From a virus (Duplodnaviria > Heunggongvirae > Uroviricota > Caudoviricetes): DNA of 7,488 bases. The stretch is taken from the IMG/VR virus record IMGVR_UViG_2663763232_000018; one strand, 5' to 3'. The position numbers and the translations under genes are program-made. This document shows positions 1,051 to 7,488 of this stretch, piece after piece; position 1 is the stretch's first letter; each line of letters starts with the position of its first letter. The notes below the pieces were generated by a model that did not search any database, was not told the DNA's origin, and worked only from the letters and a program-made list of their open reading frames with translations.

Positions 1051-1371
1051 TTAACCAGTTTGTTTCTCGGAGCGGTCTGATCCAGTTGACTCTGGCCCAA
1101 TGTGTGCGAGGGCCGGTGCGATTTGACCAGCTTGAGGGGCGGTCTTATCAGTCATAAGCCAGAGCGTGTATTTTGCGAAACGTGAATGCTGAGTGATCTT
1201 AAGCAAGATATCGCTACCAATACTCTCCACTCTTCCTGTCTCGTAATACTTCTGCGTGCCAGCAGGTATTCCAGTTAATTCAAAGAATTGCTGCCTTGTT
1301 AACCCCTCCGCATCCCTGATAGCTCTGATTTTTTCACCCACGCCGCTTGACGGGGTAGGGATCTCTACCAT
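1051..1371 (-). CDS. C: Immunity repressor, P2 C-type (HTH, about 106 aa from ATG at 1371; alternative in-frame ATG at 1404 gives 117 aa)
   Basis: Translation has an XRE-like helix-turn-helix (LTRQQFFELTGIPAGTQKYYETG) and a C-terminal segment (KYTLWLMT...GQIAPALAH) that matches my recollection of P2 C. The ATG at 1369-1371 has a near-consensus SD AAGGAG 6 nt upstream on the minus strand. Stop TAA at 1051-1053. The track ORF 1051..1410 begins with a TTG. Confidence 0.75.
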   Translation of the reverse strand: MVEIPTPSSGVGEKIRAIRDAEGLTRQQFFELTGIPAGTQKYYETGRVESIGSDILLKITQHSRFAKYTLWLMTDKTAPQAGQIAPALAHIGPESTGSDRSEKQTG

Positions 1372-1376
1372 AACAT
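1347..1376 (+). promoter_or_regulatory. Candidate rightward early promoter (Pe-like): -35 TTGACG at 1347-1352, -10-like ATAACA/TAACAT at 1370-1376
   Basis: Hexamers read by eye with a 17-18 bp spacer. The -10 is weak and the assignment is tentative. The element would overlap the 5' end of the repressor gene, consistent with the face-to-face promoter arrangement known for P2 and 186 switches. Confidence 0.25.
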
Positions 1377-1404
1377 TCTCCTTAAGGGTGGTAATCTCTA
1401 CCAT
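1361..1404. promoter_or_regulatory. Two perfect 11-bp direct repeats ATCTCTACCAT (1361-1371 and 1394-1404), 33 bp start-to-start; candidate repressor operator half-sites
   Basis: The repeats are seen directly in the sequence. They lie in the divergent int-C / cox switch region and flank a candidate -10 for the rightward early promoter, as P2 C operators (direct repeats flanking the Pe -10) do. Each repeat ends in CCAT, giving an in-frame ATG for the repressor on the minus strand. Confidence 0.4.
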
Positions 1405-1471: not shown

Positions 1472-1753
1472 ATGACAGAGAAAGAGTTAGAGGGGTTCAT
1501 TGAAGTGCGTCACGCCGTTGACGCGGTTCCATACCCTAAATTTGCCGAGTTAATCGGTAAGAAGCCCGCCACGGTTAAGAGCATGATTGAAGACGGTAAG
1601 TTGCCGATCATCCCGTGGAAGAACCCGGAAAGCCTGGGCGCCCGCGCTGAGAACTGGATCTATATTCCTGAGTTCAACCGCGCAATGCGTGACGCCTATT
1701 ACAACCGTCCGAGAGAACAGCGCGACGCGTGGTTGTTGTGGATCGGTCTTTGA
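1472..1753 (+). CDS. cox: Cox-like excisionase / early transcriptional regulator, 93 aa
   Basis: ORF 1472..1753(+), first gene transcribed divergently from the repressor. Size matches P2 Cox (91 aa), and the C-terminal WLLWIGL and the YPKFAELIGK segment match my recollection of P2 Cox. Confidence 0.75.
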   Translation: MTEKELEGFIEVRHAVDAVPYPKFAELIGKKPATVKSMIEDGKLPIIPWKNPESLGARAENWIYIPEFNRAMRDAYYNRPREQRDAWLLWIGL

Positions 1754-1763
1754 GGTTATCGCG

Positions 1764-1967
1764 ATGAGCCAGAAAACAGCCAACCACGAAAACCGGGTGC
1801 GTGAATGTAACGACATTCTGGACACCCATTTAAAAGATATGCAAACGGGCTTCATGATTCGCACCAATAGCGGCGAGTTCATGATCAGGGATAAAAAGCT
1901 GATTAAGGAAATAACCAAAGACGTGGCCCGCCATGTTGATGGTGAATTGCTTAAGCTGGGAATGTGA
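1764..1967 (+). CDS. Hypothetical small protein, 67 aa (MSQKTANHENRV...)
   Basis: ATG at 1764 is 7 nt downstream of SD GAGGT, which overlaps the cox stop. The 126-aa track ORF 1587..1967 starts at a TTG inside cox in another frame and its N-terminal part looks like out-of-frame junk. Confidence 0.6.
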   Translation: MSQKTANHENRVRECNDILDTHLKDMQTGFMIRTNSGEFMIRDKKLIKEITKDVARHVDGELLKLGM

Positions 1968-1974
1968 GGGCGAT

Positions 1975-2217
1975 ATGTTCAATCCACTGAATAAAAGCTA
2001 CACGGCAGTTATCAACCCTTTTTCTGATAACAATACCTATGATGTGCCGACATATATAAAGCCGGGCACTAAAGTAACGGTTGCCATTGATTCGCGTGAG
2101 CAGGAAATATCTATTCTTGCTGCTTACGATTACGGCATTGAAGCACTGAACGAAGAAGGGCGCGAGCAATTAAACCGTTTAATTGCTGATCTTAAAGTGG
2201 CTATCACAGGAAGATGA
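1975..2217 (+). CDS. Hypothetical small protein, 80 aa (MFNPLNKSYTAV...)
   Basis: ATG at 1975 is preceded by SD GAGGG (1966-1970). An alternative in-frame ATG at 1933 lies inside the upstream gene and has no SD. Stop TGA at 2215-2217 overlaps the next start. Confidence 0.6.
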   Translation: MFNPLNKSYTAVINPFSDNNTYDVPTYIKPGTKVTVAIDSREQEISILAAYDYGIEALNEEGREQLNRLIADLKVAITGR

Positions 2218-2218
2218 T

Positions 2219-2422
2219 ATGAGCCAGTTAGTGCAATTAAGCCGCCACTCTTATTTATATCGTGGCTTCACGATTCAAAAGTGCCCGCGTAATCCATTTA
2301 CGTTTAAGCACTCTTATCGTATTTCCAGCAATGGCGATTATTACGGGCGTGACTTTGCTTTAGCGGAAGCCATGCGCACGGTTGATCAGATGTATAAGCA
2401 AGGGGGCAGTAATGCACGATGA
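2219..2422 (+). CDS. Hypothetical small protein, 67 aa (MSQLVQLSRHSYLYRGF...)
   Basis: ATG at 2219 follows SD AGGAAG. The upstream stop and this start overlap as TGATATG. The track ORF start at 2183 is a TTG. Confidence 0.6.
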   Translation: MSQLVQLSRHSYLYRGFTIQKCPRNPFTFKHSYRISSNGDYYGRDFALAEAMRTVDQMYKQGGSNAR

Positions 2423-2642
2423 AGGCCCATCACTGGCAAGCCTGCTTAAGCACGGGTGCCAGGTCACGCACTTCAAGAACTCACGCGGCTGGCTGGAAAC
2501 GCCGGACGGAAGATTTTTTAAACCCGAACCGGCGAAGGTTCAATTTATCAAAGGTAAAAATAAACCGTTTATTTATACCCAAAGAATAAATAAAGGCTTC
2601 CTGCTTACACTGGCTGAATTATTTAAAAAGCTAATTAAGTAA
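2412..2642 (+). CDS. Hypothetical small protein, 76 aa, basic and Lys-rich (MHDEGPSLASLLKHG...)
   Basis: ATG at 2412 is preceded by SD AAGGGGG (2398-2404). It overlaps the upstream gene by 11 nt (ATGCACGATGA). Coding sequence becomes AT-rich from about 2500. Confidence 0.55.
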   Translation: MHDEGPSLASLLKHGCQVTHFKNSRGWLETPDGRFFKPEPAKVQFIKGKNKPFIYTQRINKGFLLTLAELFKKLIK

Positions 2643-2729
2643 TTCGGTTTTAAAAAAATCAACTATGTTTTCTCCGCCTTTTTATTAAGTGGCGGCGGTT
2701 CAACTCATTCTTTTTTTGAGGAAGAGATT

Positions 2730-2942
2730 ATGACCAGACGTGATCAATATAGCTTCATTTTGCATGTTCTTTTACCTGCTATCGAAAATGAAGGCTTAAC
2801 CATTAAAACCCGCCGTGATGGTGAGTTAACCCTTTCTGCCACTGGATCAGTAACCACTAATTTTATCAGCAACCTGCGCCAGCACTGCATTGAAGAATTG
2901 CAGCGCCCTTCCATTCCTTCTTCTCCTTACGGTTATTTATAA
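2730..2942 (+). CDS. Hypothetical small protein, 70 aa (MTRRDQYSFILHVLL...)
   Basis: ATG at 2730 is preceded by SD GAGGAAGAG. It sits in the AT-rich segment after an 87-bp AT-rich intergenic gap. Confidence 0.55.
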   Translation: MTRRDQYSFILHVLLPAIENEGLTIKTRRDGELTLSATGSVTTNFISNLRQHCIEELQRPSIPSSPYGYL

Positions 2943-2957
2943 ATAGAGGTCTTTTAC

Positions 2958-3206
2958 ATGAGTAACGTAGCGAAACTTCAATTAGGTTTTTCACCGCTGA
3001 CTAAAAAAATCCAGTTGGCAAAGATGCGCGATGATGGGGAAGGGCGCCGCCTTCGCGTTGGTAGTGATCCTGGTCGTGATGTGACTAACGAAGCTGCGCA
3101 ATTAGTTTGGCAGTTGGTTATGTCTGAGGGAGGGGAAATCGGCTGGAACCTGTCGGACGGTAGCCGCATGGTTTTGAAAGCTGAGAAAGTGGGGCACGCA
3201 TCATGA
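2958..3206 (+). CDS. Hypothetical small protein, 82 aa (MSNVAKLQLGFSPLTKK...)
   Basis: ATG at 2958 follows SD-like AGAGG. Its stop overlaps the dam start as ATGA (3203-3206). Confidence 0.6.
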   Translation: MSNVAKLQLGFSPLTKKIQLAKMRDDGEGRRLRVGSDPGRDVTNEAAQLVWQLVMSEGGEIGWNLSDGSRMVLKAEKVGHAS

Positions 3207-4186
3207 GCAGCCCTATTATTCGCCCGTTCATCAAATGGGCAGGGGGTAAAACCCGTGTCCTTCCTGACCTGCTGCCGCACCTTCCTAAAGCCGACTGCCT
3301 GATCGAACCGTTCGTAGGCGGCGCATCGGTATTTCTGGCGACTGAGTACCGCCGCTATGTGCTGGCTGATATCAACCCGGATCTTATTAACCTTTATCGG
3401 GAAGTCACCCGTTACCCGGACTTAGTGATCGATGCGGCCCGCGAACTGTTCAACAGCAAGAACAGCCCGCAGGGGTACAACGAAGTCCGCGCCGCGTTCA
3501 ATAAGCAGGTATGTACGGTAAAAAGCGGTGGGTTGCGTTATGGCGTCGAAATGGCGCGCATCATGCGTGCTGCTCAATTCCTGTATCTGAACCGCCACGG
3601 TTATAACGGCTTATGCCGTTACAGCCGTAAGACCGGCTTTAACGTGCCGTTTGGCAAGTATAAGAGCGTCTACTTTCCTGAAAATGAAATCCGCCTGTTT
3701 GCCGAAAAGGCCAACGATACAAAGGCAATATTTCTTTGCGCGCCGTTCCAGCGTTCTCTACAGGTCGTCACGGGTGGCGATGTTCTCGTTTACTGCGATC
3801 CGCCTTACCTGCCTGAAAGCAAAACAGCCGATTTTACCCAATACCACACCGAACCATTCACGGAAGACAACCACCGCCAGTTAGTCCAGGCACTGCTGGA
3901 AGTTAACCGTAAGCATGGCGTGAAGGTTGTCATTTCCAACAGCGACACCGAAGCCACCCGCGCGATTTATCAGCCTTTCAAGATGCACGAAATCAGCGTG
4001 CAACGTTCCGTCAGCACTGACAAAGACAACCGCCAGAAGGCCAAAGAAGTGATCGGCGTGCTGCCTGTCTGCGACTGCTGCGGGCGTTACGGCGGCGGTT
4101 GCCCTGATTGTGGCGCCGTGATGGGTGATGCGACTTACAACGCGATGGTTGCGGCAGGCACGTTTGACGATCTGGAGGCGTTTTAA
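3203..4186 (+). CDS. dam: Dam-family N6-adenine DNA methyltransferase, 327 aa, orphan (no adjacent restriction enzyme), with Cys-rich C-terminal extension
   Basis: N-terminal KWAGGK (residues 11-16), SAM-binding-like EPFVGGASVF, and catalytic DPPY (codons 3797-3808) are seen in the translation and are hallmark motifs of Dam-type MTases. A Cys cluster CDCCGRYGGGCPDC (codons 4070-4111) lies in a C-terminal tail beyond the length of E. coli Dam. Confidence 0.85.
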   Translation: MSSPIIRPFIKWAGGKTRVLPDLLPHLPKADCLIEPFVGGASVFLATEYRRYVLADINPDLINLYREVTRYPDLVIDAARELFNSKNSPQGYNEVRAAFNKQVCTVKSGGLRYGVEMARIMRAAQFLYLNRHGYNGLCRYSRKTGFNVPFGKYKSVYFPENEIRLFAEKANDTKAIFLCAPFQRSLQVVTGGDVLVYCDPPYLPESKTADFTQYHTEPFTEDNHRQLVQALLEVNRKHGVKVVISNSDTEATRAIYQPFKMHEISVQRSVSTDKDNRQKAKEVIGVLPVCDCCGRYGGGCPDCGAVMGDATYNAMVAAGTFDDLEAF

Positions 4187-4365
4187 TGAATCTTGTAGAC
4201 GCCTGGATCGTTGAAATCATAAGCGTGAGTCGTGGCGAGATTGTGCCGTATTGGTTGGTTGAGGCGAAAGTAACAGCTTATGGAAGGGAGTCAATAACCA
4301 CAATTCTGAAGAAATCAGAAGAGGAAGCCAAAGCCGTTAAAGTAGGGGATGTAGTTCAAATATGA
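4186..4365 (+). CDS. Hypothetical small protein, 59 aa (MNLVDAWIVEIISVSRGEIVPYWLVEAKVTAYGRESITTILKKSEEEAKAVKVGDVVQI); not present in the supplied ORF track
   Basis: Hand-translated ORF exactly filling the dam-A gap. Its ATG overlaps the dam stop (TAATG at 4184-4188) and its stop overlaps the A start (ATGA at 4362-4365). It was probably omitted from the track for length. Confidence 0.5.
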   Translation: MNLVDAWIVEIISVSRGEIVPYWLVEAKVTAYGRESITTILKKSEEEAKAVKVGDVVQI

Positions 4366-6719
4366 CCACGGCAACCAGTGGCCGTCGCGCCCCTTCTCCA
4401 CCTCCACCGTATCCGGGCAGCACTGACAATGCTATCCCTTACGCTTATGGCGGGAACAAACCATACCAGCCGATTGGCGTTGATGTAGCGCCGGGGCTGG
4501 ATGGTTTCGACTATCTCACGCCGGACGGCACGCGTAAGCATATTGCGTTCAGTGAACTGGTAGCGGAGGACGAAAAGCCGGAACGCAGTAAGCTGCTGCG
4601 TCGCCGTCTGGCTTCTCTTCCGCAATATGTCCGCCGCCACTTTGCAGCGAAGCTTGATGCGCTGGATGTGAAAGACCGCAAAGCGGCAGATCACTGGCTG
4701 CTTAACACCTTTGAGCGCCACGTATTAACGCGTATTGATAGCGTGAACAGTGTTTACCAGCCTGATACTGTGATGCCCGGCATTCTGCTGCCAATTCGCG
4801 ATCAGCTTTTCCGTATGCTCTGGGCAGGGAAAAAAGAGTTAAAAAGACTGGCTTATACGCTTGCCGATATCTTTACGAGCGAGTTTATACGCGAGTCCGA
4901 TCACCAGTTGGTGCGCACCGGCGATCCTGAGTTCGCGGCGCTTTCTGGCTATGGCCGTATTGCATCGCTGGCAGTGCATCTGAAAACGCCGATCCCCGGT
5001 TGGACAGCTTATTGCAATGAAGAACTTGAAGCGGAGGACGCGTTACGCGCAGTTCTCCGTCTTGAGTCACCGCAGTGGTGGTTAAACCGCCTGCGCCGTA
5101 TCCATGCCCGGTGGCGTGAGCATTTGATGATCGCAGCGGGATACGTCCAGAAAAAATCCTCCCCATACAGTAGCGCCCCGTGCCTTACGGAATGGCTGGC
5201 CCAGAAAAAAGCTAACCGTGAATACCTCAAGGCTATGGAACTGGAAGACCAGGACACGGGCGAGCGCATTTCGCTGATCGATAAAGTCGCCGGCAGTGTT
5301 GCCAATCCGGCCAACCGTCGCCGCGAACTCATGACGAGAATGCGCGGATTTGAAGATCTGGCGAAGCTGGAAGGGCTGGCCGGTGACTTCTACACGCTGA
5401 CAGCGCCTTCCCGCTATCACGCTATGCAGCATAACGGGCGCCGTAATAACAAATACTGTGGCGCGTCGCCGCGTGAGACACAGCAATATCTTTGCAAAGT
5501 CTGGGCGAGAACCCGCGCCGCATGGAAGAGAAAAGGGATCCGCGTCTTTGGTTTCCGCGTGGTCGAACCGCACCACGATGCAACGCCACACTGGCATTTG
5601 CTTCTTTTTATGCGCCCGGAATGCGTCGAGCAGGCGCGCGAAATCTTCCGTAAATATGCCCTGAAAGAAGACGGCAACGAACCGGGAGCGCAGGAAAACC
5701 GCTTTCAGGTCGTGCCGATCGACGATGCCCACGGCAGCGCAACTGGCTACATAGCGAAATACATTTCGAAGAATATCGACGGCTTCGCGCTGGATGGTGA
5801 GAAGGACGACGAAACCGGGGAAGACCTGAAAGAAATGTCACTCCGCGTTAGCGCGTGGGCATCGCGCTGGGCTATTCGTCAGTTTCAGCAGATCGGCGGT
5901 GCGCCGGTCACGGTATATCGCGAACTTCGCCGCTTGGGCGATCGCGAACTGGTGTTACACCCTGAACTGGAAACCGCCCGGCAGGCCGCTAACGGTGGCG
6001 AATGGGATAACTACGTATTAGCCCAGGGTGGCCCGTTGGTTGAGCGCGATAAGCTGCGCATCCGTCTGAATTATGAAACCACTGAAAACGGCAACGCCTA
6101 CGGCGATAACGTCCAGCGAATCACTGGTATTTACTGCCCGATTACGGGCAATGACTCTTTGATCTTCACCCGCACCACTCAATACAAAATCGTGCCGAAG
6201 CGCCAGAGCGCTGACGGTGTGGCCGTTGACGTTGGTTTTTCAGGCGGCAACGCCGCCCCTCGGAGTTCTGTCAATAACTGTACGCGGGATCCCGCGGCAG
6301 GTGCTGACGGTGTTGAACATGCCGATCACGAAGTGGGCGAGACGGTGAATTTTGATGCGCTTTCACGGCAGGAAAAGCGAGAACTGGCACAGAGGCTAAG
6401 TGACGATGTGCGAAGTAAGCGGAAAAAACGGCCACCGGAACGGGAAGACGGGGCCGGGATATCCGTGAAAGAGCAGCAGATCAGTGAACTGCTGGCGCTG
6501 CGTGGGATTGATGCCAGCGCCGGAATGGTCAGATCGATGATGGCCGGTGCGTCAGTGGCGTGCGGCGATCTTGTTATGACAGTGCAGGATGGGCGGCTGG
6601 TATCGCGCAACCGCGCCGCGTCGGGGCTGGATAAGCTGCCGTCGCAGGTGATGGCGGCGAAGCAACAGACAAATAGTCTTATTAACCGAATGAAAAAAGC
6701 CTTTAACGGTGCGTCATAA
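4362..6719 (+). CDS. A: Rolling-circle replication initiation protein gpA (HUH endonuclease superfamily), 785 aa
   Basis: HUH motif in PHWHLLLF (codons 5589-5597); paired catalytic tyrosines in GYIAKYISKNIDG (Tyr codons 5748-5750 and 5760-5762). Other blocks (TLTAPSRYH, VVEPHHDATPHWH, AWASRWAIRQF, RTTQYKIVPK, AAPRSSVNNC) match my recollection of P2 gpA. Confidence 0.9.
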   Translation: MTTATSGRRAPSPPPPYPGSTDNAIPYAYGGNKPYQPIGVDVAPGLDGFDYLTPDGTRKHIAFSELVAEDEKPERSKLLRRRLASLPQYVRRHFAAKLDALDVKDRKAADHWLLNTFERHVLTRIDSVNSVYQPDTVMPGILLPIRDQLFRMLWAGKKELKRLAYTLADIFTSEFIRESDHQLVRTGDPEFAALSGYGRIASLAVHLKTPIPGWTAYCNEELEAEDALRAVLRLESPQWWLNRLRRIHARWREHLMIAAGYVQKKSSPYSSAPCLTEWLAQKKANREYLKAMELEDQDTGERISLIDKVAGSVANPANRRRELMTRMRGFEDLAKLEGLAGDFYTLTAPSRYHAMQHNGRRNNKYCGASPRETQQYLCKVWARTRAAWKRKGIRVFGFRVVEPHHDATPHWHLLLFMRPECVEQAREIFRKYALKEDGNEPGAQENRFQVVPIDDAHGSATGYIAKYISKNIDGFALDGEKDDETGEDLKEMSLRVSAWASRWAIRQFQQIGGAPVTVYRELRRLGDRELVLHPELETARQAANGGEWDNYVLAQGGPLVERDKLRIRLNYETTENGNAYGDNVQRITGIYCPITGNDSLIFTRTTQYKIVPKRQSADGVAVDVGFSGGNAAPRSSVNNCTRDPAAGADGVEHADHEVGETVNFDALSRQEKRELAQRLSDDVRSKRKKRPPEREDGAGISVKEQQISELLALRGIDASAGMVRSMMAGASVACGDLVMTVQDGRLVSRNRAASGLDKLPSQVMAAKQQTNSLINRMKKAFNGAS
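6258..6274 (+). other. Candidate origin-of-replication nick region inside gene A (CCTCGGAGTTCTGTCAA)
   Basis: In P2 the ori lies within the A coding region. This stretch encodes the conserved AAPRSSVNNC block and closely resembles the P2 ori nick-site sequence as I remember it (one mismatch). That memory was not verified, so the call is tentative. Confidence 0.35.
6283..6296. repeat. Perfect 14-bp palindrome CGCGGGATCCCGCG with a central GATC, inside gene A
   Basis: Self-complementarity verified base by base. It lies 9 bp downstream of the candidate ori nick sequence. Confidence 0.85.
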
Positions 6720-6771
6720 CAGCGTGCCGGGGCTTCGCTTATTCATTTTCAGAAGAAACAGGAGTGACAGC

Positions 6772-7488
6772 ATGAGCAAAATTACCAGAGAACGCGCAGC
6801 AAAAATTGCAGCAGGCGGCGGATATAACTTTGATGAGGTGGAGGAGCTGGCGCGTATCGCGCTGGCATCGCTCGAAGCGGAGGAGTCAGGGCGAAATCCC
6901 GTGCTGGCCTATGCAGACAGTTACCGCGATATGGCTAAGCAGGGTGTTGAATCTATTCCTGTATGGAGCGTAATTACCGATCTGGAAAGAAATATCGCCC
7001 CGCTATACTCCGCCCCGCCAGCGCCGGTAGTTCCGGCAGAGCTTCATCCTGATACGCTGAAACTGGTGACCGACTTCAGCTCCGCCCTGGCTGAGAAGTT
7101 GTACAAGGCTCAATTAAAATATGGCTATGACGCGGACTGGAAACAAGATGGTTGGCCAAGCCAATGCCAGGCAGACTTTCAACAGCATATAGCTAAGGGA
7201 GACCCCCGGGATGTTGCCGCTTACTGTGCATTTATGTGGTATCACGGCTGGAAAACTGAGCCAGCGCCGGTATCGCTGCCTGACGAGCAACATAGCGAAC
7301 GCTTCAACTGGACACTTGGGCAGTGGGCTGAACATGTTGGGGGTCATTACCAGGGAAATGATCCGGCAAACTATTACGAGTTCGGCTCATTCATGGCGGT
7401 CGCTGCAATGCTGTGCCAATTCGGCACCGTTCAGCAAAAAATTGGATGGAACGCCTGCCGCGCCGCCATGGTTAACGCAGGCCAGTGA
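6772..7488 (+). CDS. Hypothetical two-domain protein, 238 aa, unknown function
   Basis: ATG at 6772 has a strong SD AGGAG (6760-6764) 7 nt upstream. The track start at 6709 is a GTG overlapping the end of A. The translation shows an acidic N-terminal region and a Trp/aromatic-rich C-terminal region (KYGYDADWKQDGW, AAYCAFMWYHGW) separated by a Pro/Ala linker (APPAPVVPAELHP). Stop TGA at 7486-7488. Confidence 0.7.
   Translation: MSKITRERAAKIAAGGGYNFDEVEELARIALASLEAEESGRNPVLAYADSYRDMAKQGVESIPVWSVITDLERNIAPLYSAPPAPVVPAELHPDTLKLVTDFSSALAEKLYKAQLKYGYDADWKQDGWPSQCQADFQQHIAKGDPRDVAAYCAFMWYHGWKTEPAPVSLPDEQHSERFNWTLGQWAEHVGGHYQGNDPANYYEFGSFMAVAAMLCQFGTVQQKIGWNACRAAMVNAGQ

Follow-up and report, generated by a model that had tools for sequence, protein, structure and literature searches.

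Two described early lytic operons frame the locus examined here. In phage 186 (NC_001317), the operon runs from pR through apl, cII, fil, dhr, the terminator tR1, and CP79–CP84 to A; in phage P2 (NC_001895), it runs from Pe through cox, orf78, B, a terminator, and orf80–83 to A. The 186 record states for fil that "overexpression blocks cell division" and for dhr that it "inhibits host DNA replication." Both are over-expression or infection phenotypes from 186 alone (186 record, NC_001317): Filamentation is annotated for 186 fil only, and replication inhibition for 186 dhr only.

We analyzed a 7,488-nt stretch of Caudoviricetes DNA (IMG/VR record IMGVR_UViG_2663763232_000018; hereafter, the window), whose nearest relatives are Peduoviridae phages—phiT5282H (97% identity) and SEN4/5—that have the backbone int-C-cox-...-dam-A in common with it. 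Our subject is the block of small genes between cox and dam (1764–3206). Most likely, this block forms the accessory middle of an early lytic operon in a P2-like prophage (Peduoviridae) with a 186-type early region, and its arrangement is ordinary for the P2/186 phage group. Gene content, homologies, selection, synteny, composition, and cassette boundaries are direct observations and are given as such below.

Probable Early Promoter and Operon Layout

A probable early promoter, Pe, lies upstream of the block at 1347–1376 on the plus strand (TTGACG-18-TAACAT by promoter scan; element 1347..1404), with a sequence identical in phiT5282H. Two 19-nt direct repeats (1353–1371 and 1386–1404, plus strand) flank its −10 hexamer. 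The layout of promoter and repeats agrees with O1/O2 annotated at P2 Pe, and by this analogy the repeats are likely operators of a P2-type C repressor. Judged from its sequence, Pe would probably drive the block. The first early-operon gene is cox (1472..1753, plus strand; 93 aa), which matches PF10743 Phage_Cox at 82.4 bits and whose product shares 48% identity with P2 Cox.

Six plus-strand ORFs of 67, 80, 67, 76, 70, and 82 aa (orf1–orf6) fill the interval between cox and dam. A first-pass annotation had described six ORFs of 67 to 82 aa there, each with its own Shine–Dalgarno sequence; the positions are exactly as it gave them, and a GAGG/AGGA-type Shine–Dalgarno sequence, read directly from the DNA, lies 4–9 nt 5′ of all six. 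Overlapping stop and start codons, said to join several of the genes, occur less often than claimed: The 3′ end of orf3 overlaps the start of orf4 (fil) by 11 nt, and the orf6 stop overlaps the dam start by 4 nt (ATGA). Elsewhere the genes are packed with gaps of 1–15 nt (1 nt between orf2 and orf3), the sole exception being one 87-nt spacer.

Such gaps and overlaps imply that the genes are probably co-transcribed and partly translationally coupled. Scanning 1764–3206 returned no plus-strand promoter-like sites and no terminator-like sites, and these consensus scans, taken with the spacing, point to probable co-transcription from Pe. The empty scan and the tight packing behind Pe also run against the earlier suggestion of moron cargo. 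Because no promoter or terminator of its own was found, the block falls outside the strict definition of a moron, although a consensus-based scan is a weak test of that status.

The downstream boundary of the block is dam (3203..4186, plus strand), which encodes a D12-class N6-adenine DNA methyltransferase (PF02086, 213.6 bits). A 59-aa ORF (4186..4365, plus strand; phrog_8110) separates dam from A and occupies a variable slot, held in relatives by Dcm, DUF4406, or PAPS reductase. Gene A (4362..6719, plus strand), a rolling-circle replication endonuclease by annotation in relatives, ends the early operon; relatives label it replication endonuclease or origin-nicking protein, and PF05840 Phage_GPA is found in near-identical loci. 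A short stretch of the ORF that follows gene A is also found in EaA genes.

All six block ORFs are under purifying selection, with synonymous changes predominating in comparisons with relatives (dN/dS 0.03–0.3). Short ORFs in AT-rich DNA might in part be chance open frames, and none of the curated libraries contains a family for orf2. That reading is nonetheless scarcely credible: The synonymous excess holds in all six (dN/dS ≤ 0.3), orf2 has 34 length-conserved homologue clusters reaching down to about 61% identity, and the AF2 models of orf2 and orf5 are confident.

Base Composition

GC content is 44.2% in the block and 53.7% in the rest of the window, a deficit of ~6.5 SD by a binomial estimate made by hand. 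The segment at 2440–3030 has 40.6% GC, and the minimum, 34.7%, falls at 2501–2800 (300-nt windows). GC3 is 0.38–0.48 in orf2–orf6, compared with 0.59 in orf1 and 0.58–0.66 in int, cox, dam, and A. The low GC of the block and its AT-rich segment, first noted by eye, are thus borne out by computation, and neither GC nor GC3 is uniform across the window.

The first-pass annotation took this shift as a mark of acquisition, an interpretation that fails on comparison with the counterparts in P2 (B 43.5%, spacer 40%, orf81 37%) and 186 (dhr 40%, tR1 spacer 39%, CP83 39%). Gene A has 52–53% GC in the same comparison, and the early segments of both phages are depressed as much as the block. Because these counterparts are equally AT-rich, low GC is no sign of recent acquisition.

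Composition is also what would mark the whole block as a recently acquired foreign island or moron set, a reading that can further appeal to orf2 and orf6, which are true insertions relative to the closest phages. We regard it as unlikely. In addition to the AT-rich early segments of P2 and 186 and the lack of a promoter or terminator in the scan, orf1, DUF4761, Fil, and orf5 are all present, their order unchanged, in the most closely related phages and prophages, at a divergence resembling that of the flanking cox and dam. For these four core genes, the foreign-island reading is largely refuted.

Conservation Across Relatives

Enterobacter phage phiT5282H (Novemvirus) and Salmonella phages SEN4/SEN5 (Senquatrovirus) are 95–98% identical to the window in nucleotide sequence. 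They share its order—int, C, cox, orf1, DUF4761, fil, orf5, dam, A—without orf2 and DUF7446. SEN4/5 additionally differ in their orf5 allele, which is 69% identical, and have a Dcm gene where the window has the 59-aa ORF. Four of the six block genes are thus conserved, and in order, in the closest relatives.

A wider sample of 24 independent Fil-bearing genomes gave a similar division. The run DUF4761–Fil–Dhr-like recurs in 14; a Dhr-like gene is present in 14, and DUF4761 adjoins Fil in about as many. By contrast, orf1 occurs in 5 of the 24 loci, orf2 in 2, and DUF7446 in 1. The lineage-conserved core is DUF4761, Fil, the hairpin, and the Dhr-like gene, whereas orf2 and DUF7446 are small cassettes swapped at gene boundaries among temperate phages.

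This division splits the earlier proposal of horizontal cargo. The proposal stands for orf2 and orf6, exchanged cassettes that are cleanly absent from phiT5282H and SEN4/5; it does not extend to orf1, DUF4761, Fil, and orf5, which are conserved in order. The related view of the block as the variable, non-essential part of the early operon is likewise supported. The description of six unknown ORFs lacking any assignable motif does not hold, as three of the six exceed Pfam thresholds (Phage_186_Fil, DUF4761, and DUF7446).

Conserved Core

The third gene, orf3 (2219–2422, plus strand; 67 aa), belongs to DUF4761 (PF15958, 42.3 bits against a cut-off of 27; phrog_2492). It is a short form of the family, since the match spans just positions 39–95 of the 105 in the model. 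DUF4761 lies immediately 5′ of Fil in most relatives, and orf3 evolves under strong constraint (dN/dS 0.03–0.09). Linkage and overlap with fil in most lineages suggest a role tied to Fil rather than membership of a variable defense repertoire.

The overlapping gene, orf4 (2412–2642, plus strand; 76 aa), is a clear member of Phage_186_Fil by sequence: It matches PF10893 at 71.6 bits (cut-off 25) over model positions 2–52 of 56, and matches phrog_816, "cell division inhibitor," at 2e-21. RefSeq names its orthologue "phage filamentation protein Fil family protein." Identity to 186 Fil is about 23–32%. An alignment of six Fil proteins, including those of 186 and SEN1, has 15 invariant columns, and orf4 retains the N-terminal core of 186 Fil (PSxASLL, H, GW, DG, P, and KG). 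Its location is likewise that of an early lytic gene of a P2-like phage, in the cox–A interval and on the same strand.

Between orf4 and orf5 lies the only real spacer of the block (2643..2729, plus strand; 87 nt, 34.5% GC), which is also its AT-rich minimum. The spacer contains a small plus-strand hairpin, in which CCGCC (2674–2678) pairs with GGCGG (2691–2695), followed 3′ by a conserved box, CGGTTCAACTCATTC (2696–2710, plus strand), and a T run (2711–2717, plus strand); the orf5 Shine–Dalgarno sequence is also within it. RNAalifold recovers the hairpin unaided in 15 diverse loci, with 93% of cells paired, compensatory changes in three of the five pairs, and a covariation score reached by 1 of 500 shuffles. 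The location is equivalent to that of 186 tR1 and of the P2 putative terminator after B. Considered as a canonical intrinsic terminator, the spacer was negative by scan and of ordinary folding energy (z = −0.5); an Rfam search of the window returned no match. By analogy with 186, hairpin and box may instead form, for example, a site setting up the read-through that the 186 record notes for tR1, and not a plain terminator.

The next gene after fil is orf5 (2730-2942, plus strand; 70 aa), which we identify as a distant homologue of 186 Dhr by blastp, hhalign, and reciprocal HMM comparison. The two proteins share 30% identity over 66 aa (blastp, 30–35 bits), against 20 bits for the best of 5000 shuffles, and hhalign aligns the orf5 family to Dhr with 96.5% probability (E 1e-9, 63 columns). 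The HMM matches hold in both directions, and no other ORF in the compared loci was matched. Size (about 66–70 aa, as for Dhr) and adjacency to fil, retained in 14 of the 24 Fil loci, agree with this assignment. The AF2 model has an alpha-beta-beta-alpha fold (pLDDT 86.6).

The relationship is a distant one. In RefSeq, orf5 is a "hypothetical protein"; an exhaustive single-pass HMM search with the close orf5 family returned 18 matches at E ≤ 0.001, with Dhr not among them, and a widened profile scored Dhr at 28.7 bits, or E 0.1 at whole-library scale. Because orf5 falls in phrog_21140 and the Dhr family is phrog_6069, and because Dhr is missed library-wide, we treat orf5 as a distant homologue and not as a member of the curated family. 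Proteins of 1000–2200 aa that also matched the orf5 profile belong to many unrelated Pfam families and contain no significant stretch; these were taken as low-complexity artefacts.

Searches of PDB sequences with DUF4761, Fil, the orf5 profile, and DUF7446 gave nothing significant, and fold searches with orf2 and orf5 gave no functional clue. The six block ORFs had no meaningful match in NCBIfam or PADLOC, with none of the six matching a PADLOC defense-system model at E ≤ 0.01. A search of the open literature on DUF4761, DUF7446, PF10893, Fil, and Dhr found no mechanism paper.

Clade-Specific Gene and Exchangeable Cassettes

The first gene, orf1 (1764–1967, plus strand; 67 aa), belongs to the clade-restricted family phrog_29148 (PHROG match 3e-49). 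The family is narrow, with 79% identity or more throughout except for a single 39-aa fragment, and dN/dS is 0.04–0.3; orf1 is a clade-specific addition. It may share the Dhr-like helix-hairpin-helix layout. We considered it as a Dhr-like paralogue, a possibility that we keep without adopting: The hhalign probability is 74% with the orf5 family (32 columns) but only 18% with Dhr itself.

The second gene, orf2 (1975–2217, plus strand; 80 aa), is a rare cassette of a small unnamed family confined to cox-to-A early operons, within which its position varies. The nearest copy, in Citrobacter sp. Y3, is 99% identical, and the gene is missing from the otherwise 95–98% identical phiT5282H and SEN4/5, with clean junctions at gene boundaries.

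The last gene, orf6 (2958–3206, plus strand; 82 aa), is a DUF7446 cassette (PF24233, 63.4 bits against a cut-off of 24.1; model positions 1–67 of 70). It too is missing from phiT5282H and SEN4/5 with clean junctions, and in Escherichia coli relatives its slot holds a 3′–5′ exonuclease or nothing. A varied set of phages (lambdoid, P22-like, and phage-plasmid), 21 records in all, carries copies at 64–81% identity. Two DUF7446 contexts were examined, in Salmonella phage 29485 and phage PhiR41_1, and both are ea (early accessory) regions; the ea regions that harbor DUF7446 include those of P22-like and phage-plasmid genomes.

Such exchange bears on whether orf1, orf2, DUF4761, and DUF7446 act against restriction, abortive infection, or other host immunity. 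The genes are small and expressed early, and their slots vary among otherwise near-identical phages. DUF7446 is common to unrelated temperate phage types, and a P22-like phage carries it within a few genes of one annotated as anti-RecBCD; the neighboring dam and dcm are plausible restriction-evasion functions. Yet no characterized inhibitor was matched in Pfam, PHROGs, NCBIfam, PDB sequence, or fold searches, DUF4761 is tied to fil in most lineages, and the literature search on the DUF4761 and DUF7446 families was empty. We consider an anti-defense role for these four genes doubtful, and we read the block primarily as the accessory middle of a 186-type early operon.

Proposed Role in the Lytic Program

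The C-repressed promoter Pe would give a transcript carrying cox, orf1, orf2, DUF4761, fil, the structured spacer, the dhr-like gene, DUF7446, dam, the 59-aa ORF, and A. If the activities in the 186 record extend to these homologues, the Fil protein would be expected to block host septation upon induction or infection, and the Dhr-like protein would be expected to reduce replication of the host chromosome. Between them, these effects would leave the cell available for rolling-circle replication dependent on A. The earlier expectation of host-inhibitory early genes in the block is accordingly matched, at the level of homology, by Fil and the Dhr-like gene. With no function assigned to four of the six genes, "host takeover" covers only part of the block.

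The first-pass annotation had pointed out that no ORF of the size of the P2 B helicase loader (~166 aa) is present. We confirm this: blastp and tblastn found no P2 B homologue in any frame of the window, and the largest block ORF is 82 aa. One or more of the small proteins might nevertheless replace B, serving as accessory factors in replication, recruiting the host helicase, and not as host inhibitors. The block sits where P2 has B, and "replication initiation protein" is the RefSeq label of some small early proteins in P2-like phages, P2 orf81 among them, as well as the label of the PHROG that 186 CP83 matches. We judge such a substitution very unlikely, given the absence of B similarity in every frame, the 186 record's marking of the tR1-to-A genes as non-essential, and best homologies that are to Fil and Dhr and not to replication proteins. 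In a 186-type operon, A-dependent replication would need no B-like loader. Papers from the Egan laboratory reportedly show that 186 replication requires gene A only.

We offer one further proposal tentatively, as something that could well prove wrong: One or more of the four proteins left unassigned would be a new early inhibitor of a host defense or housekeeping target, and, separately, the hairpin and box would constitute a regulatory RNA element of P2-like early operons. The best candidates for the inhibitor are DUF7446, which moves between P2-like phages, P22-like/lambdoid phages, and phage-plasmids, and orf2, which hops between operon positions.

The analysis corrects an annotation of six unknown ORFs to a conserved core plus exchangeable cassettes. 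It also defines variable cargo slots for counter-defense and host-takeover screens: cox|DUF4761, fil|dhr-like, dhr-like|dam, and dam|A. Linking orf5 to Dhr extends the only known Dhr phenotype to far more enterobacterial prophages, and since fil and dhr-type genes travel together, there is reason to study both as a pair.

Comparison with Known Systems

Lambdoid and P22-like phages carry, within the PL operon, ea regions that resemble the block in being mosaic runs of small non-essential early genes and that contain DUF7446 homologues, beside Ea22, EaD, and EaA genes. These regions differ in phage type, promoter, and regulatory circuit; what they have in common with the block is single cassettes and not arrangement.

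P2 shares with the window a framework made up of C, Pe, cox, and A. The corresponding place in its operon contains a hairpin (CGCAC-TTAATT-GTGCG) whose loop is AT-rich and which carries a putative-terminator annotation. P2 orf78, B, and orf80–83 have no homologue in the window, and P2 is without fil, dhr, and dam.

The window differs from 186 in its P2-type Cox and its lack of cII, for which no homologue was found in any frame. Gene order differs as well, DUF4761-fil-spacer-dhr-like in the window and fil-dhr-spacer in 186; further downstream, the window has DUF7446 and dam where 186 has DUF2732, DksA-like, exonuclease, DUF5405, and PAPS reductase genes. Identity between window and 186 proteins is only about 23–32%, with a Fil homologue at the Pfam level and a Dhr homologue at the profile level in the same neighborhood. 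The two operons share adjacent fil and dhr genes, a structured AT-rich spacer (tR1 in 186), non-essential small genes, and the A replicase, and 186 likewise has no P2 B-type gene or loader between apl and A. A missing B is normal for the 186 type, and 186 is therefore a better comparator for this early region than P2.

Genomic Layout and Coding Status

The window comes from a P2-like prophage and represents its left end. An integrase gene (1–981) and an XRE-type C repressor gene (from 1051) lie on the minus strand, and the plus strand carries cox (1472–1753), six small ORFs, the Dam methylase gene (3203–4186), a 59-aa ORF matching phrog_8110 (4186–4365), and replicase gene A (4362–6719). The six ORFs—orf1 (1764–1967; 67 aa), orf2 (1975–2217; 80 aa), orf3 (2219–2422; 67 aa), orf4 (2412–2642; 76 aa), orf5 (2730–2942; 70 aa), and orf6 (2958–3206; 82 aa), all on the plus strand—have exactly the sizes reported in the first-pass annotation, and each is preceded by a Shine–Dalgarno-like sequence, as claimed there. 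True overlaps occur at orf3/orf4 (11 nt) and orf6/dam (ATGA), and 2643–2729 is the sole real spacer.

In comparisons with relatives, substitutions in each of the six ORFs are strongly skewed toward synonymous changes, with dN/dS mostly 0.03–0.3 and comparable with cox and dam; the ORFs are genuine genes. The 59-aa ORF, tightly coupled on both sides (overlaps of 1 nt with dam and 4 nt with A), shows the weakest constraint among the small genes (dN/dS up to ~0.9, on very few substitutions). A separate 19-nt direct repeat (1892–1910 and 2624–2642; 17/19 identical) encodes KKLIK close to the C-terminal portion of the orf1 product and at the extreme C-terminus of the orf4 product, and may be chance or a recombination trace.

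Family Assignments and a Dhr-Like Protein

The six ORFs had been described as unknown, a label that does not hold for all of them. By profile score, orf4 is a clear Phage_186_Fil member (71.6 bits; cut-off 25); it matches phrog_816 (“cell division inhibitor”) and shares 15 invariant positions with 186 Fil and SEN1 Fil. We identify orf3 as a short DUF4761 protein and orf6 as a DUF7446 protein, and orf5 is very probably Dhr-like. Across Pfam, PHROGs, NCBIfam, and PADLOC, the sole matches of orf1 and orf5 were phrog_29148 and phrog_21140, respectively, and orf2 had none. Sequence searches of the PDB with DUF4761, Fil, DUF7446, and the orf5 profile found nothing, fold searches with confident orf2 and orf5 models were uninformative, and the open literature consulted held nothing on the mechanism of Fil or Dhr, nor on DUF4761 and DUF7446.

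When window proteins were compared with 186 and P2 early proteins, orf5 aligned with 186 Dhr at 30% identity over 66 residues, scoring 30–35 bits, whereas none of 5000 shuffles exceeded 20 bits. The close orf5 family matched Dhr with an hhalign probability of 90%. Searching 1.8 billion representatives exhaustively with the profile brought the orf5 family to 18 proteins without reaching 186 Dhr; the widened alignment matched a Dhr alignment over 63 columns, close to the full extent of each, at 96.5% probability (E 1e-9). Within the complete ORF set of the compared loci, the orf5 profile matches solely orf5 orthologues and the three Dhr proteins, and the Dhr profile solely Dhr and orf5 orthologues. 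Given these matches, and since orf5 is also of Dhr size and occupies the corresponding position next to fil, we consider it very probably a distant Dhr homologue, one lying outside the curated Dhr PHROG.

The orf1 product and the orf5 family share a helix and a G[FL]xI[KR]T..GE[FL] hairpin motif. By hhalign, orf1 reaches 74% probability over 32 columns against the orf5 family; since Dhr itself gives just 18%, kinship to this family is kept as a possibility only. Four very long repetitive proteins (P0165, P0167, P0168, and P0171; 1000–2200 aa) each contain 5–14 orf5-profile stretches. They were rejected as orf5 relatives: the three scanned against Pfam (P0167, P0168, and P0171) give scattered sub-threshold matches to many unrelated families, and the proteins look like low-complexity artefacts.

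Variable Slots in a Conserved Frame

Over the backbone, the window is 95–98% identical to Enterobacter phage phiT5282H and to Salmonella phages SEN4/5, which share the order cox–orf1–DUF4761–fil–orf5–dam. Relative to phiT5282H, the window has two clean insertions, 1971–2224 (orf2) and 2933–3214 (orf6), whose junctions fall at gene boundaries and reach a few codons into the starts or ends of the adjoining genes. The proposal that the block is horizontally acquired cargo stands in part: it is accessory and partly exchanged but not a foreign island, and orf2 and orf6 are variable, with the other four genes kept in order in the closest relatives.

E. coli prophages of the same family adjoin cpxP and keep the frame with different cargo. 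Relatives carry nothing, DUF7446, or a 3′–5′ exonuclease between orf5 and dam; TerB plus DUF3927 between fil and orf5; and the 59-aa ORF, Dcm, or DUF4406 between dam and A. Slot cargo across relatives includes TerB with DUF3927 (TciB-like), the exonuclease, ParE-like, DUF4406, DUF3850, PAPS reductase, and Dcm proteins, with early-operon slots occupied at 5528–6144 of prophage locus L005, 5734–6315 of L004, and 7443–7667 of L011. In two E. coli prophages dam is annotated as a broken pseudogene (L003, 5993–6928; L005, 6401–7357), and the upstream small genes are intact.

A scan of one genome per species yielded 24 further Fil loci across Enterobacterales. A Dhr-like gene is present in 14, DUF4761 adjoins Fil in about as many, and orf1, orf2, and DUF7446 occur in five, two, and one, respectively. 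The 34 homologue clusters of orf2 all lie within such early operons, at differing positions: the gene follows cox in Salmonella and fil in Candidatus Erwinia dacicola, and here it precedes DUF4761. Diverse enterobacterial phages contribute 21 records with DUF7446 at 64–81% identity, among them a Lambdavirus and phage genomes of roughly 108 kb; DUF7446 lies among ea genes in both contexts examined (2/2), and in Salmonella phage 29485 also near an annotated anti-RecBCD gene. More distant Fil-bearing prophages (hosts Erwinia, Buttiauxella, Kluyvera, and others) have after fil, in place of a Dhr-like gene, a gene for a conserved 129-aa protein without a Pfam family (6258–6647 of L014, with counterparts in L035–L037, L040, and L042); this gene is separated from fil by the orf2 homologue in Candidatus Erwinia dacicola.

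The ORF at 6709–7488, which starts within the 3′ end of A and is open at the window edge, matches several PHROGs of unknown function and contains a 36–48-nt stretch, 92–100% identical, common to lambdoid and other enterobacterial phage genes, some annotated EaA. In relatives, A is followed by quite different genes, for an ImmA/IrrE peptidase or an FtsH-like AAA ATPase, so this is a further variable slot, at the point occupied in P2 by orf91, tin, and old. A paper on SEN4/5 says only that phage early regions are usually mosaic (PMC5261728). The present analysis adds a map of the variable slots and a new annotation, orf5 as Dhr-like.

Proposed Transcription and Early Function

A promoter scan placed a Pe-like promoter at 1347–1376 (plus strand), bracketed by two 19-nt direct repeats (1353–1371 and 1386–1404) that are laid out as P2 O1/O2 and look like P2-type operators. 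The C-repressor ORF as mechanically called (1051–1410; TTG start; 119 aa, vs. 78–117 aa in relatives) overlaps the promoter and both repeats at its 5′ end, where it is probably over-extended.

Within the block, scanning gave neither a plus-strand promoter-like site nor a terminator-like one, which argues against reading these genes as a set of morons. With a Pe-like promoter upstream, the six genes are most likely transcribed together with cox, dam, and A once C repression is lifted. By homology, septation would be halted by Fil and host replication depressed by the Dhr-like protein, with gene A driving rolling-circle replication. The suspicion of host-inhibitory genes is thus borne out, as putative functions, for these two; the other four of the six have no putative function.

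Comparison with 186 and P2

The compositional shift noted by eye is confirmed by computation: GC is 44.2% in the block vs. 53.7% in the remaining window, falling to 40.6% at 2440–3030 and to a window minimum of 34.7% at 2501–2800, on the fil 3′ end and the 87-nt spacer. GC3 is 0.38–0.48 in orf2–orf6 vs. 0.58–0.66 in int, cox, dam, and A. This low GC is not peculiar to this prophage, as the counterparts are equally depressed in 186 (dhr 40%, tR1 spacer 39%, CP83 39%, vs. gene A 52%) and P2 (B 43.5%, spacer after B 40%, orf81 37%, vs. A 53%).

The spacer (2643–2729, plus strand) contains a small hairpin (2674–2678 pairing with 2691–2695), followed by a conserved box (2696–2710; consensus CGG(T/A)T(C/T)AACTCAT(T/C)C), a run of T residues, and the ribosome-binding site of orf5. 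RNAalifold predicted the hairpin unguided in 15 diverse loci, with compensatory changes in three of five pairs, 93% of cells pairing, and the observed covariation reached by 1 of 500 shuffles. Stem variants include CCGCC/GGCGG, CCATCG/CGATGG, CCACTGT/ACAGTGG, and CATCAC/GTGATG. The hairpin/box element spans 2674–2717, its compensatory stem changes extend across genera, and Rfam holds no match for it. In the window it does not qualify as a canonical intrinsic terminator, given the 5-bp stem, a T run 15 nt downstream, a negative terminator scan, and a folding z-score of −0.5. The P2 sequence CGCAC-TTAATT-GTGCG, which follows B at the corresponding point, carries a putative-terminator annotation, and 186 has tR1 after dhr, annotated among several regional terminators read through in early lytic transcription; we take the hairpin to correspond to tR1 in position, any shared function being putative.

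Absence of a B gene is usual in the 186 type. The 186 record contains no B-type loader, and in it the genes from tR1 to A are labelled non-essential. Egan laboratory papers reportedly describe 186 as requiring gene A alone, with DnaC supplied by the host. The block is a 186-type accessory early segment.
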